A stretch of 64,000 bases of DNA from Candidatus Margulisiibacteriota bacterium (GCA_034723395.1 JAYEOW010000024.1:1-64000), one strand, 5' to 3'. Shown: positions 22,244 through 27,125, counted from the first letter of the stretch. Notes: generated from the letters alone by a model not told the origin. Numbers and translations are program-made.

Positions 22244-23806
22244 ATGTTATTTACGAACTCTTTATATTATAAAAAGTTGAAGGAGCTTGCCGGCTCCTCC
22301 AAGCCAGACCGGCCTAAAGGCTTTGATGAAGCTTTCACCGTAAAAACCGAACATGCTTACTTTGACTTTTCCCGCCAGCTTGTCACCTCGGATGTCATGC
22401 AATCGCTCTTTGAACTAGCCAAAGAAAGAAATTTAAAAGATAAGATTGAAGCCATGTTTAAGGGTGATAAAATCAACAAAACTGAAAACCGATCGGTTCT
22501 TCATGTTGCCCTGCGTAGTGGAGAAAATCCTGAGGTAGAGGCAGTCCTGGCCAAGATCAAATCCTTTTCCGAAGAAGTTCTATCTGGAAAGAGAACTGGC
22601 GCAACTGGCAAAAAGCTTAAAAATATTGTATCCATTGGCATTGGTGGATCCTATCTTGGACCCGAATACTTCGCGGTTGCCCTTCGGCCATACGCTCAAA
22701 AGGATATGAATCTTATCTTTGTAGCAAACGTTGACGGGACCGATTTTGCCGAAAAAACTGCCGGGTTAGATCCCGCAGAGACACTTATTATTATTGTTTC
22801 GAAAACCTTTACTACTGCAGAAACGATGTTAAATGCAGATACCGCAAAAAAATGGATTCTGGACGGATTAGAAAATCACCCCGAGGCCATAAAAAAACAT
22901 TTTGCCGCGGTTTCAACTGCCAAGGATAAAGTCAAAGCTTTTGGAATTGATGCAGAAAACATGTTCGGATTCTGGGATTGGGTCGGCGGACGTTTTAGCG
23001 CAACTTCAGCAGTTGGAGCGGTCCCGCTATCGCTTTATCTCGGATTTGATAATTTTAAAAAGATACTCGATGGCGCCAAGTGGATGGATGAGCACTTTAG
23101 AAATGTCCCTTTTGAACAAAATATACCGGTCATTTCGGCCTTAATAGATATCTGGAATATTAATTTCCTGGGATTAAAGACTCGCGCGCTGCTCCCCTAT
23201 TCCCAAGGATTGGCAAAACTTCCCGCCCATACCCAACAGGTAGAGATGGAGAGCAATGGAAAACGGGTAGATCTGGAAGGAAATCCAATTGATTTTGATA
23301 CGGGAGAGGTTGTTTTTGGAGAGCCGGGAACAAACGGACAACACTCTTTTTATCAATTGCTTCACCAGGGCGCCCAGATCATCCCCTCTGATTTCGTCGG
23401 CTTTATTAAACCTCAGTATCAACTAGGTAAATCAACTGATAAAACAGTTACTCATCATCAGGAACTTATGACCAATTTTTTGGCACAACCTGACGCTTTA
23501 GCTTTCGGCAAAAAAGATTCCAACCCGGCAAAGGACTTCCCCGGCAACCGGCCTTCGAGTTCCATGCTATTAGAGGAGCTTAATCCGTTTACTGCTGGTC
23601 TCCTCCTTGCCTGGACCGAACATCGAGCCGCGACCAAAGGATTTATTTGGGGGATCAACAGTTTTGATCAGGAGGGGGTTCAGTTAGGTAAAGTTTTAGG
23701 TAAAGATCATCGAAGGAGAATGTTAGAGTTTAATTCATCTGGAAAAGTTGATGTTAAAGGATTAAGCCCATCGACCGCAGCCATGCTTAAGAGGATATTA
23801 GCTTAA
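22244..23806 (+). CDS. pgi: glucose-6-phosphate isomerase
   Basis: GIGGSYLGP, VSKTFTTAET, FWDWVGGRFS, GTNGQHSFYQL, NSFDQ.GV.LGK; ATG 22244 follows GGAGG. Confidence 0.96.
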   Translation: MLFTNSLYYKKLKELAGSSKPDRPKGFDEAFTVKTEHAYFDFSRQLVTSDVMQSLFELAKERNLKDKIEAMFKGDKINKTENRSVLHVALRSGENPEVEAVLAKIKSFSEEVLSGKRTGATGKKLKNIVSIGIGGSYLGPEYFAVALRPYAQKDMNLIFVANVDGTDFAEKTAGLDPAETLIIIVSKTFTTAETMLNADTAKKWILDGLENHPEAIKKHFAAVSTAKDKVKAFGIDAENMFGFWDWVGGRFSATSAVGAVPLSLYLGFDNFKKILDGAKWMDEHFRNVPFEQNIPVISALIDIWNINFLGLKTRALLPYSQGLAKLPAHTQQVEMESNGKRVDLEGNPIDFDTGEVVFGEPGTNGQHSFYQLLHQGAQIIPSDFVGFIKPQYQLGKSTDKTVTHHQELMTNFLAQPDALAFGKKDSNPAKDFPGNRPSSSMLLEELNPFTAGLLLAWTEHRAATKGFIWGINSFDQEGVQLGKVLGKDHRRRMLEFNSSGKVDVKGLSPSTAAMLKRILA

Positions 23807-23876
23807 TAAACTCGGCCTCCCCCTACGCTCTCCAAGCTCCGGGGGACATGTCGGAGATTATCTTCAGGTTTCCCAA
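23787..23876 (-). pseudogene. short orphan ligA 3'-end remnant interrupted by a palindromic repeat
   Basis: Reads LGNLKIIS-[33 bp palindrome with TAG]-EAEFIKLISS*, compared with LigA end [15 protein letters not shown]. Confidence 0.65.
23818..23846. repeat. palindromic repeat
   Basis: TCCCCCTACGCTCTCCAAGCTCCGGGGGA, imperfect hairpin. Confidence 0.6.
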
Positions 23877-23905
23877 ACATGCAGGAATACGCTATAATAA
23901 GATTT

Positions 23906-24247
23906 ATGAAAATTGTTAGCAATCCGATAACACTACAAGAGATCAAGCAAATGGCCAAAAGTAAATTTGGCAACTTCGTTAAAGCAGTGGTAGACATCGA
24001 GCGTTCCTTAATTGTACTCGACGCTGAGCTGCATGCCGATGAGGAAGCTCTATTAATTGAAAACGGATCAAAATCTCATGATTTATGGGGTATAAACCTG
24101 TATCCCGATCTCCCATTTGAAGATTTCATTGAATACGATTCTATGATCAACCTTAAGCCTTCAGAGAACAATCGAAGTCGCGGGGTTGAAAGCCCTGAAA
24201 TAAGGGAAAAAATAACCCAGATCGTAAGGAAGTTCATCAAACTATGA
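23906..24247 (+). CDS. DUF5674-like protein
   Basis: FVKAVVDIE..DAELHADEEALL.ENGS...LWGINLYP..IEYDSMINLKPS.NNRSRGVE; TATAAT just before ATG suggests a leaderless mRNA. Confidence 0.8.
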   Translation: MKIVSNPITLQEIKQMAKSKFGNFVKAVVDIERSLIVLDAELHADEEALLIENGSKSHDLWGINLYPDLPFEDFIEYDSMINLKPSENNRSRGVESPEIREKITQIVRKFIKL

Positions 24248-24570
24248 CTCCGCAACATCAAGAACTGGCCTCTGGAAAATGGAAATCTTTGAGCTTTGTC
24301 GAGCAAATGGCAAATATCGGAAGCGAGGTAGAAAGGGCTATAAGCTGGCGGAATAAGGCCAATCAAGAATATAGCCGCTTGGCTTTTGAACGATCTCTTG
24401 AGCTTTTGGATTTATCACTTTCCGCCGGACTATCCTTTCCACGATTAAAAGAACTAACTCGCCTCAGAGAAATGCTTGCTGATTATTTTGTTTTCGGGAA
24501 TAGTTTTAATTCGACGGACTCCCAGTGGCAGAAATATTTCTTAGCCTTTAACTTTGCGGCCAGAGCCTAA
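24244..24570 (+). CDS. conserved helical hypothetical protein coupled to the DUF5674 gene
   Basis: ATGA overlap; [25 protein letters not shown]. Confidence 0.75.
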
Positions 24571-24703: not shown

Positions 24704-24778
24704 GGAACCACCCCTTCTGTCCCTCGACCCCTCGACAAGCTCGGGGCTCGGGACATCTTCCCCTTATAAGGGGGAAGA
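24704..24778. repeat. composite nested palindromic repeat
   Basis: TGTCCCTCGAC-[CCCTCGACAAGCTCGGGG]-CTCGGGACA then TCTTCCCCTTATAAGGGGGAAGA. Confidence 0.85.
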
Positions 24779-25010
24779 ACACGAATGCGCTGATATCTCT
24801 TTCTTGATTTGTTTAACAACAAGATCAATGTCTGAAAAGATCTCATCATTTGTACATCTGAAAACCCGAATTCCAATACTTTCGAATATCCTTTGGCGCT
24901 CCTGATCATAGATCTTTTGGTCTTCATCAAGATGATATCCACCATCAACTTCAATTGCCAATTTTAATTCGGGCGAGTAAAAATCAATCACAAAACCGCC
25001 AATACTGTTG
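24764..25010 (-). pseudogene. DUF559 / Vsr-like endonuclease, N-terminally truncated
   Basis: SIGGFVIDFYSPELKLAIEVDGGYH..YDQERQRIFESIGIRVFRCTNDEI; the usual N-terminal part is absent. Confidence 0.75.
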
Positions 25011-25033
25011 TCATGTCTTAATATAAATAATAG

Positions 25034-25162
25034 TCTCCCCCTTTATAAGGGGGAGATAAAGAGGGGGTCGTTATACTCAAAACCTTCCTTTCCTTTATAA
25101 GGGGGAGATTTAGAGGGGGTTGTTGGAACCACCCTCCCCTCACGATATCAGAGGGGGTCGTT
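25034..25162. repeat. tandem palindromic repeats
   Basis: Two copies of CCTTTATAAGGGGGAGA(TAA/TTT)AGAGGGGGT(C/T)GTT plus a third degenerate copy ending AGAGGGGGTCGTT. Confidence 0.85.
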
Positions 25163-27125
25163 AGAGAAACTTCAAGAACTCTTCCTCAGAAATAATCTTA
25201 ACACCCAATTTCTTTGCCTTATCATACTTCGACCCCGGTTCATGCCCCACCACCACATAATCCGTCTGTTTTGATACTGAGGAAGAAGAATGTCCGCCCA
25301 ATTTTCTAACCATTTCTTCCGCGTCGGATCTACTAATTTTATCTAAACCGCCGGTAAAGACAAAGGTCTTTCCCTTTAACGGTTGAGGTCCTTTGGCCTT
25401 AGCAGTTTTTACCTTTACCCCTGCTTTTTTAAGTCGTTCGATAATTTGATGATTTTCTTTTAAAGAGAAGAATTCGGCTAGTGATTCTGCCACTTTTGGA
25501 CCGATCCCCGCGATCTTCTCAAGATCTTCTGCTTTAATATTAAATAGATCTTCTAAGTTATCATATTGTTCCGCGATCAAGGAAGCGATATGTGAACCTA
25601 CTAAGCGGATCCCAAGAGAGAATAATAATCGGTCATGCGGTCGGTCTTTGCTCCCCTGGATCGAATCGATCGTATTCTGGGCCGATTTGTCTGCCATCCG
25701 CTCAAGCTTCTTAATATCCTCTTTCTTAAGATCGTAGAGATCAGCAACATTCTTAATATATTTCTTCTCCACTAGCTGATCGATCAGCGCGGGACCGACA
25801 CCCTCAATATCCATCGCCCCGCGCATGGTGAATAGAATAATGCGGCCCTTAACTTGGTTTGGACAGCTCGCGTTAACACAGCGCGCAACTGCTTCCCCTT
25901 CGGGACGAACAATTTTCTCACCACAAACTGGACAAACCTTTGGCATATGGAACTCTTTTTCCTTACCAGTCCGTTTATCCTTAACCACTTCTACAACTTC
26001 CGGAATAACTTCCCCTGCCCGCTGAACCCTTACATGATCCTTGATCTTAATTCCTTTACGCCTGATCTCATCTTCATTGTGCAACGTGGCGCGTTTAACG
26101 ACTACACCAGCCAAATGAACCGGTTTTAAATGTGCAACCGGAGTAATCGCTCCAGTTCTTCCAACCTGAACCTTAATGTCTTCAATAATTGATTCCGCCT
26201 GCATTGGTGGATACTTAAAAGCGATCGCCCAGCGCGGATGGTGGCCGGTAGCTCCTAACTTCTTGTGATCAGCTAAATCGTTAAGCTTAACAACTATTCC
26301 ATCTATTTCATAATCTAGTTTTTCGCGCTTCTTATCCCACTCTTTAATATATTTCTTAACCTCTTCGATGCCATTGCACATTTTATTATTCGGATTGGTT
26401 TTGAAACCCAGCTTGCCCACGTATTTTAATATCTCGTAATGGGTTTTTAATTTGGGAACATCACCGTAATAAAGGAATATATCCAGCGGCCGCGAAGCTG
26501 TAATTTTAGAATCAAGCTGTCGAAGTGATCCAGCAGCAGCATTACGAGGGTTGGCAAATAGAGATTCTCCACTCTCCTGGCGGACTTCGTTAAACTTTAC
26601 AAAATCATCATATGGCAGGTATACTTCACCGCGAACCTCAATATCTACCGGATCAGACAAAGTTAATGGAATTGAGCGAATAGTCTTTAGATTCTGGGTA
26701 ATATCCTCCCCACGGCTCCCATCGCCACGCGTGGCTCCTACTTCAAACTTTCCTTTCTTGTACTGCAGGGAAACCGCCAGCCCATCCATCTTTAGTTCGC
26801 ATACATATTCGATTTTATCTGCGCCTAATCCTTTTCGAACCCTTTCATCAAACTCTTCCAACCCTTCTATATTCATCGCGTTATCAAGGGATAATAAGGG
26901 AGCTTTGTGATAGTAAGGTTTAAATGATTTAAGTGGCATTCCTCCTACTCGCTGAGTAGGAGAATCAGGGATGATCAGGGATGGATTTTTCTTTTCCAGT
27001 TCTTTTAGTTCGCTGAAAAGTTTGTCATATTCACGGTCAGAGATCTCCGGTTTATCCAGAACATAGTAGAGATAATCGTGGTGGTTGATCAGTTTTCGTA
27101 GTTTATTGATTCTATCTTTACTCAC
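25161..27125 (-). CDS. ligA: NAD-dependent DNA ligase
   Basis: ELKMDGLA active site, [14 protein letters not shown]4 zinc finger, BRCT end. Confidence 0.98.

Follow-up and report, generated by a model that had tools for sequence, protein, structure and literature searches.

A pgi/ligA gap in a Margulisiibacteriota genome holds two versions of the gene junction head to tail and a putative target-duplicating cassette

The DNA studied here is a 64,000-nucleotide (nt) stretch of a Candidatus Margulisiibacteriota bacterium (GCA_034723395.1, JAYEOW010000024.1:1-64000), called the window below, which is contig C24 of a 1.68-Mb metagenome bin of 55 contigs with 2.4% contamination. Our subject is the gap between ligA and pgi, in which additional copies of the ligA 3' end are found. 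The genes truB and ligA, on the minus strand, are convergent with pgi, on the plus strand, and from the ligA stop to the pgi stop lie palindromic repeats, a DUF559 fragment, another repeat, a second ligA end (tail 2), an antisense two-gene unit made of an open reading frame, ORF2, and a DUF5674 gene (the cassette), and a third ligA end (tail 3). Tail 1 is the end of the live ligA. The features are listed by position in the window, with protein lengths in amino acids (aa).

22220..23806, plus strand: pgi, intact, 528 aa (Pfam PGI, E = 7.4e-180)
23787..23867, minus strand: tail 3, orphan ligA end (LKIIS ... EAEFIKLISS*), about 15 codons, interrupted by a 33-nt insert
23820..23852: the 33-nt hairpin-forming insert within tail 3 (predicted DNA fold of -6.5 to -7.6 kcal/mol)
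23870..23898, plus strand: promoter-like site (TTCCCA-17-TATAAT), lying in the 38 nt that separate tail 3 from the likely DUF5674 start at 23906
23879..24247, plus strand: DUF5674 gene, first gene of the cassette (Pfam, E = 8.2e-37)
24244..24570, plus strand: ORF2, 108 aa, second gene of the cassette, with an ATGA overlap with DUF5674
24548..24682, minus strand: tail 2, orphan ligA 3' end, ligA homology over 39 codons (24566-24682)
24683..24706, plus strand: orphan pgi end (LKDEFPGG, stop lost), 8 codons, colinear with the pgi end LKGKLPG* of the relative L067
24707..24763: right-hand palindromic repeat of the CCCCTTATAAGGGG type, member of a dispersed family
24764..25027, minus strand: remnant of a DUF559 gene (Vsr-like endonuclease fold), N-terminus lost, profile positions 33-108
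25028..25160: left-hand block of repeats made of two 52-nt units in tandem, with CCCCCTTATAAAGGGGG palindromes, standing in for the N-terminal coding part of DUF559
25161..27125, minus strand: ligA, intact, 654 aa (Pfam DNA_ligase_aden, OB, ZBD, HHH_2 and BRCT)
25161-25290, minus strand: tail 1, the last 40 codons of the live ligA

Both live genes are whole. The LigA domain set is complete by Pfam, from the adenylation domain to BRCT (residues 580-652). The live pgi ends ...STAAMLKRILA*, its last codons being the antisense of tail 3, and it differs in this from its relatives, whose C-terminus is ...LLEAVLKGKLPG* and in five of which (L004, L008, L019, L067 and L074) pgi ends ...G(K/E/Q)LP(G/R)*.

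A tblastn search of the 1.68-Mb genome with the last 60 LigA residues retrieved tail 2 with E = 1.1e-16 and 32 of 39 residues identical, the runner-up having E = 0.41, which confirms the second ligA C-terminus that the initial annotation had placed at 24682-24548. Tail 2 is a 110-nt direct repeat of 25177-25286, with 77% identity. Over the 39 codons, tails 1 and 2 differ by 18.5 synonymous changes in 26.7 sites (proportion pS 0.69) and 10.5 non-synonymous changes in 90.3 sites (pN 0.12), giving a ratio of non-synonymous to synonymous substitution (dN/dS) of about 0.07 at 75% nt and 82% aa identity; the longest run identical in both is 11 nt, by eye. Since the differences are mostly synonymous and the synonymous sites are near saturation, the two tails must have diverged inside working ligA genes of different lineages. 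A local duplication would not produce this pattern, so that foreign DNA must have recombined in; the synonymous divergence had been given the same meaning in the initial annotation. On sequence evidence, tails 1 and 2 are ligA alleles of different lineages. The nucleotide identity of tail 2 is 75% to tail 1, 79% to the tail of L077 and 76% to that of L004 (82% in aa), other genera being equally near. The final 6 codons of tail 2, counting the stop (24548-24565, LWPQS*), overlap the end of ORF2 in antisense. At 24572-24607 the antisense of tail 2 forms, on the plus strand, a 14-pair hairpin followed by a T run, directly 3' of the ORF2 stop, and the dead ligA end may now serve as the terminator of the DUF5674 cassette.

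Tail 3 is much shorter. Its gapped score against the end of tail 2 was 19.4, a value reached by only 3/40,000 random 121-nt segments of the genome; the top score among these segments, 45, was tail 2 itself, so that true copies are among the three. The third tail claimed by the initial annotation is therefore real and overlaps the pgi stop, as stated, by its terminal 20 nt (pgi ends at 23806), but its proposed start at 23876 adds three doubtful codons and the match is clear from 23867 onwards. Tail 3 matches tail 2 at 30/35 nt by eye (28/32 aligned nt), compared with 22/35 between tails 1 and 2 over the same stretch. The two orphans also begin at different ligA codons, -40 for tail 2 and about -15 for tail 3. 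No further copy of the 33-nt insert was found in the genome by blastn.

The other side of the gap carries the remains of a second gene end. Through both repeats and as far as GACAGAAGGGGTGGTT, the window is colinear with the metagenome contigs L067 and L068, the closest relatives found (LigA 86% aa identical). In both contigs the ligA stop is followed by a repeat, an intact DUF559 gene, a repeat and the pgi stop, with neither cassette nor second tail; the repeat-flanked DUF559 between ligA and pgi is also found in L070. At 24683-24706 the window matches the L067 pgi end at 15/21 nt beyond the common GACAGAAGGGGTGGTT, and blastn-short of the genome did not place this segment in the dispersed repeat family. 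The orphan pgi end adjoins the first codon of tail 2, and its outer edge is an illegitimate joint at 24682/24683. As it abuts tail 2, two versions of the pgi/ligA junction stand head to tail, and the whole locus reads: pgi (full) - [tail 3, cassette] - ligA end | pgi end - [repeat, DUF559, repeat] - ligA (full).

The DUF559 remnant matches the Pfam profile at 24764-24991 (E = 3.9e-14, positions 45-108 of 109). A genome-wide exact motif search confined the exact palindrome cores to this locus, as against the looser dispersed family recovered by blastn-short. This family is also found beside other DUF559 genes of the genome (5 DUF559 places), for example at C46:20318-20407, C46:15256-15393 and C16:8831-8850, and the same repeats occur on other contigs of the sample; DUF559 with its repeats may itself be a mobile unit. 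A search of 23400-25400 against Rfam gave two rows only, with E of 0.48 and 0.98, far under the gathering scores.

The order truB-ligA facing pgi is, judging from the relatives, an old arrangement. The pgi and ligA stops overlap in L004 (-8 nt) and L011 (-60 nt) and abut in L008 and L074 (0), and gaps of 425-640 nt are found in L017, L019, L022 and L067/L068. Among 39 relatives' loci, the first ORF behind ligA is pgi itself in about 11; the others include DUF559, an IS200-type Y1 transposase, DUF3644, NucS-like, DNA methylase, Fic, deacetylase, GNAT and HATPase_c_3. The cargo behind ligA is thus variable, as the initial annotation expected, and no single arrangement is fixed among these relatives. 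IS200-type Y1 transposase genes lie directly downstream of ligA in two relatives of the same order (L005 4340-4807 and L006 4143-4610), a further sign that the 3' flank of ligA takes insertions.

The cassette between tails 2 and 3 consists of two small genes. The true start of DUF5674 is likely 23906 (MKIV...), and a TATAAT-like box is found 8-12 nt upstream of the ATG in most other cassette loci. The AlphaFold2 model of DUF5674 has a mean confidence (pLDDT) of 83, and no similar solved fold was found, the best hits being E 0.42 with Foldseek against the PDB and Z 4.2 with VIA-align against 48,161 chains. For ORF2, a four-helix bundle is suggested by an Atlas structure match (TM score 0.90) whose cluster bears the automatic name 'putative Four helix bundle protein'. 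Neither Pfam nor NCBIfam assigned ORF2 to a family, and a single PADLOC row (E 0.0086) was ignored; a literature search for DUF5674 by name returned no paper. ORF2 is present in 35/65 genomes of the class, nearly always directly after DUF5674, and its neighbours differ in almost every genome. Among species representatives the cassette has at least 538 relatives. The best 80, which are 55-69% identical, come, by their record titles, from Margulisiibacteriota/Saganbacteria/WOR-1, Omnitrophota, many Patescibacteria, Planctomycetes, NC10, Acidobacteriota, Bacillota, Verrucomicrobiota, Fibrobacterota and one Bathyarchaeia bin. Beyond DUF5674, no family match and hence no known transposase or recombinase was found in the cassette, and no conserved ends or inverted repeats were found in 8 loci; the cassette could conceivably encode a transposase of a new kind. 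A second DUF5674 copy of the genome (on C33) is a broken paralogue, with neither ORF2 nor repeats, beside a 366-aa gene that we take, from its sequence, to be a putative ychF. Elsewhere, contig G059:C55 (L044, 2512 nt) has identical 99-nt ends and contains a Fic gene, a pair of 134/126-aa genes flanked by a 16-nt repeat, and a DUF5674 cassette; the contig may represent a circle or a collapsed repeat.

Cassettes at other loci are flanked by long direct repeats of their target. Flanking repeats with z >= 5 were found at 7/86 distinct cassette loci versus 2/315 valid shifted controls, one of the two control positives being a third copy of the same repeat in genome G018; the controls were counted after exclusion of 16 self-alignments from 331 rows, and the window locus scored z 4.7, for its first block only. 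These repeats measure 21-63 nt, lie at the cassette ends and consist in every case of target sequence. In G003 the repeated piece is the final 20 dapF codons, in G007 the end of a radical-SAM gene and in G018 that of a small ORF; G040 repeats the tRNA-Asn 3' end, L212 a protein tail, and L217 a tRNA-like end running from the T-loop to CCA. In G065 (L165), tRNA-Thr is followed by 58 nt, the cassette and the same 58 nt again, the copies being 56/58 identical. The corresponding empty site in G070 (L267) has the tRNA end, a single 58-nt copy and the same downstream DNA, with no cassette. Both G065 copies have common states unlike G070, which indicates that the duplication arose in place. This filled/empty pair is the only one, and it is at tRNA-Thr and not at ligA. 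An empty site was also sought for dapF, where 27 relatives carry a single dapF tail, but the downstream gene is unlike that of G003 and the site is not a clean one.

Tail 3 can be placed in this series. It flanks a cassette that has target-derived repeats elsewhere and is nearer to tail 2 than tail 1 is; tail 3 is for these reasons best read as the displaced half of a target duplication of about 42 nt made by the cassette, the cassette ends lying about 0-40 nt from the tail copies. A true stack of orphan ends was observed in G018 (L255, G018:C41:28000-36500, 5065-6790), where a 66-nt gene end is present three times behind a small AbrB-like ORF, two of the copies being 98% and 70% identical to the reference one, and the copies set apart a 252-aa gene and a DUF5674 cassette.

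We then asked where else such scars occur, comparing within the bin the C-terminal 45 residues of 1,647 long ORFs with the 4 kb downstream of each, and scanning 1,344 ORFs for partial copies. Besides ligA, paralogues and repeat proteins, one further locus was found, on contig C48 (L031, C48:5500-13000, 1246-6827). Its order is mltG (full) - PP2C-like gene - guaA end | mltG end - DUF6036/AbiEii-like gene with a 63-aa partner - guaA (full), the DUF6036/AbiEii-like gene being of the nucleotidyltransferase type. The two orphan ends are:

L031 3566-3865: orphan guaA end, 101 codons, 89.7% nt and 98% aa identity
L031 3899-4363: orphan mltG end, 160 codons, 76% nt identity

This locus has the same topology and the same mostly synonymous divergence as the ligA/pgi locus. 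Other candidates were set aside: an nrdD 'orphan tail' on C40 turned out to be two full-length nrdD-like genes in tandem (anaerobic ribonucleotide reductase; L032, C40:52500-60000, 961-5153, 79% identical over the last 38 residues), and a match after the ORF ending at 31326 was, by reading, a repeated IF2_N-like domain. At C15:8258-8365, 1 kb upstream of the 425-aa gene C15:5915-7192, residues 3-38 of that gene are found a second time with 69% identity, a possible orphan 5' end.

To survey ligA itself we took 105 ligA loci with downstream DNA and searched each with its own tail. Orphan ligA tails besides those of the window were found in L089 (39 codons, E 3e-6), L116 (25 codons, E 6e-4) and L015 (16 codons, E 2e-4), with weaker matches in L018 and L138/L139 (E 0.003-0.004). 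In the window's own genome such tails occur at ligA, guaA and mltG only, among the 1,647 long ORFs, a comparison that is rough since thresholds are unequal and relatives are not independent. The tails of L089 (4368-4475) and L116 (8039-8113), on distant Patescibacteria-like contigs, are decayed and lie 39-68 nt past the ligA stop, with type IV pilin genes upstream and gatC/gatA downstream; in L089 the orphan stands just before gatC and no cargo separates the live from the dead tail. In L015, which belongs to G018, ligA is followed at 3330-4620 by a terminator hairpin, a helix-turn-helix/Fic gene with a consensus-like promoter (PADLOC PDC-S04/SoFic) and a 16-codon orphan ligA tail, which starts at most 1 codon from the start of tail 3 in the window.

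From the topology of the locus we infer a mechanism in two events, and to this reading, one inter-allelic recombination scar plus one duplicating cassette insertion with no integrase needed at the site, we assign a probability of roughly 0.6. In the first event, the cassette would have inserted three codons before the ligA stop of a junction in which the pgi and ligA ends overlapped tail to tail. About 42 nt of target would have been duplicated, the pgi-side copy becoming tail 3 and the ligA-side copy the end of tail 2, and ligA would then have ended ...FIRLWPQS* within the cassette. Insertion with duplication is observed at other loci and we infer it at ligA. In the second event, this junction version would have been joined head to tail with a version of the order pgi...LKGKLPG* - repeat - DUF559 - repeat - ligA, the joint connecting codon -40 of ligA in the first version to codon -8 of pgi in the second. 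Homology-facilitated illegitimate recombination (HFIR) with DNA from a diverged relative, homologous on one side (in ligA or pgi) and illegitimate on the other, is expected to yield such a joint; with the illegitimate end inside the resident copy, it would leave tail 2 and the pgi end orphaned, the live pgi deriving from the first version and the live ligA, with tail 1, from the second. The same order would also result if a circularised fragment had inserted by a Campbell-type event. Later, the N-terminus of DUF559 would have been lost to repeat expansion and the hairpin inserted into tail 3.

The second event could have run in two directions. Either an L067-type piece (the 3' part of ligA, DUF559 and the pgi end) was imported with ligA as anchor, or the 3' part of pgi, tail 3, the cassette and tail 2 were imported with pgi as anchor, in which case the ligA tail would never have been replaced. 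We weakly prefer the latter, because the nearest relatives carry the DUF559 form. The claims of the initial annotation about the history of the locus have to be adjusted to this extent. Tails 1 and 2 do bracket a DUF559 remnant with repeats, and tails 2 and 3 a DUF5674 two-gene unit, both by Pfam matches, but DUF559 is poorly described as fresh cargo arriving with tail 1, given the same repeat-flanked gene in L067/L068 and L070, and tail 3 fits a target duplication of the cassette better than a third imported tail. Of its serial uptake of 'tail + cargo' fragments, the foreign alleles and the lack of an integrase stand; one inter-allelic event and one cassette insertion are enough for the rest. 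It had taken ligA as the gene whose end was replaced, and the orphan pgi end means that pgi may be that gene instead.

Several observations weigh against this two-event reading. Among the sequences searched there was no donor or intermediate, that is, no full ligA with tail 2 ending beside ORF2 and no close strain with one allele only. The illegitimate joint is seen at 24682/24683, but sliding identity did not locate the homologous crossover: along truB-ligA-DUF559-pgi the nucleotide identity to L067 stays level, near 77% in pgi, ligA and truB alike. In sliding aa identity with 8-11 relatives, L067 is nearest throughout pgi and loses its lead in ligA after residue 500, which may be mere conservation. 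GC content and GC content at third codon positions (GC3) of the parts of the locus gave no signal. Homologous recombination is very inefficient at 25% divergence. The orphan pgi end is only 8 codons long. No flanking repeat was found at 79/86 cassette loci. Finally, 4/5 differences between tails 2 and 3 are synonymous, which fits two functional alleles too; with half of the divergence neutral this proportion is not unusual (P ~0.26 by our estimate).

The last of these points is also accommodated by two successive imports anchored in ligA, in line with the serial uptake of the initial annotation, in which tail 2 with the DUF5674 unit first displaced tail 3, then tail 1 with DUF559 displaced tail 2, each step combining homologous exchange within ligA with an illegitimate junction in the tail then resident. 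Its second step is one direction of the reading we favour, an L067-type fragment reaching into the donor's pgi end. LigA past about residue 500 is not closest to L067 (residues 576-625 are 84% identical to L067 and 90% to L077), and the ligA - Fic - 16-codon orphan order of G018 is of the kind expected. We nevertheless hold this history to be rather unlikely. The DUF559 arrangement is common to the nearest relatives and hence the likelier resident state, no donor is in evidence, with ligA absent from the 1.5-kb flanks of other cassette loci (29 loci, L038-L066), and the cassette duplicates unrelated targets, including one empty/filled pair; the close fit of the cassette ends to the tail copies is also unexpected for a random illegitimate end. 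Elements carrying an integrase and the ligA 3' end in their attP, accreted in tandem and later stripped of their integrases, would explain a displaced 3' end beside a restored gene, which is the classic mark of tyrosine-integrase islands, and would suit the two cassette sites at tRNA 3' ends and the three 66-nt gene-end copies that separate two cargo units in G018. Such an origin is improbable. The initial annotation saw no integrase at the locus, and the 3 Phage_integrase (PF00589) matches of the genome, its tyrosine recombinases, are all on other contigs (C28, C29 and C50); no recombinase family was matched in the ORFs of 23787-25160, in a search that did not include serine recombinases. The tails start at codons -40 and about -15 with no common crossover core, the longest identity run of tails 1 and 2 is the 11 nt given above, the cassette repeats vary from site to site and are target-derived, and an att model does not account for the orphan pgi end. 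A literature search, judged from its listings, gave nothing relevant on the ligA 3' end as an attB or integrase target.

An artefact was also considered, in which the assembler stitched together the pgi-ligA gaps of two coexisting strains. The source is a metagenome bin, with the fragmentation and contamination already given, and dispersed repeats lie near the joint. Over 22800-26200, a 22,076-nt contig of the Logan assembly is identical to the window and spans all joints; it is the product of a second assembler from probably the same reads, in the one run that contains this DNA, labelled brine metagenome, and does not represent independent DNA, so that the check rests on contigs of the probable source run. 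That a second assembler returned the same 3.4 kb nonetheless speaks against a chimera, as do the position of the 24682/24683 joint between unrelated sequences, outside the repeat (whose matches elsewhere in the genome are at most 28 nt), and the like structures in other assemblies from other studies. No alternative contig was found in that run at >=90% likeness, and runs X2 and X3 of the same study gave conserved snippets only. We regard a chimera as very improbable. Hardly credible is an origin of the tails by tandem duplication in place, with the ligA ends diverging later and cargo inserting between them: tandem duplications are common and the copies are in direct orientation, but at the dN/dS measured, and with synonymous changes approaching saturation, a copy free of selection would have degenerated, whereas the frame of tail 2 is still open and most of its residues are conserved. 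The orphan pgi end and the DUF559 arrangement of the relatives would be left unexplained.

Beyond the window, we put forward as a tentative and rather doubtful proposal that the cassette pair represents an undescribed route of gene gain in small-genome bacteria (Margulisiibacteriota, Omnitrophota, Patescibacteria and others). By this route, short promoter-bearing cassettes with no integrase, transposase or terminal repeats may enter gene ends, tRNA ends and terminators, and the target duplication of 20-60 nt may keep the struck gene whole, with the cassette or a host pathway as agent. If this were true, the ligA stack, the Fic insert and the three-copy stack of G018 and the mltG/guaA locus would come down to one process plus ordinary recombination between alleles. 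Apart from this proposal, the locus illustrates how streamlined uncultured bacteria with almost no intergenic space can gain accessory genes and not kill essential neighbours, either because incoming DNA supplies a replacement gene end or because insertion duplicates the end. Orphan ends are datable scars, here of recombination between lineages about 25% apart in DNA, and the order 'gene A - cargo 1 - B end | A end - cargo 2 - gene B' provides a search pattern for metagenomes. The DUF5674 cassette is a tractable test case, being 0.7 kb long, with its many relatives and a long target duplication with an empty site.

Several known systems resemble parts of this locus. The initial annotation had likened it to the orphan C-termini of Rhs and contact-dependent inhibition (CDI) loci, and we find the analogy apt. 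Kirchberger et al. 2017 (PMC5361080) propose HFIR for the displacement of type VI secretion system (T6SS) effectors and of rhs/cdiA 3' ends, citing Jackson 2009, de Vries & Wackernagel 2002 and Prudhomme 2002. In these arrays, a conserved gene body is the anchor, a new 3' end arrives with cargo and the old end is orphaned downstream, with no integrase involved and with orphans resembling functional alleles of other strains, all of which is paralleled here. Unlike in those arrays, the genes are housekeeping ones (ligA and pgi, guaA and mltG), there is no polymorphic toxin domain and nothing that selects tail diversity, each of the two convergent neighbours has left an orphan, so that two gap alleles lie in tandem, and the stack is shallow. 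In a search for 'C-terminal displacement' with orphan or housekeeping genes, the phrase occurred, among the matches listed, only in work on secreted toxins.

Integrase islands enter the 3' ends of tRNA, tmRNA and protein genes, can accrete in tandem and leave remnants that lack an integrase. Here too the copy on the element side restores the target's 3' end, the displaced copy lies at the far end and arrays are possible; unlike in such islands, there is no integrase, the target-derived repeats differ from site to site over the range of 21 to 63 nt, and the insert is about 0.7 kb. IS1634 of Mycoplasma mycoides makes long, variable target duplications. The cassette is likewise flanked by a long direct target duplication whose length depends on the site, but it has no transposase family match, no terminal inverted repeats and no conserved non-coding ends. 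Two-gene cassettes of the toxin-antitoxin kind are known as itinerant genes, and the DUF5674 cassette shares with them two small translationally coupled genes, its own promoter, a patchy occurrence over many phyla and changing neighbours; it differs in that searches of Pfam, NCBIfam and PADLOC yielded no toxin or antitoxin family, apart from the one PADLOC row already mentioned. What is new with respect to all these systems is the two-sided topology of the scar, its recurrence in one genome, and a cassette spread over several phyla whose long target duplication is confirmed, in one case, by an empty site.

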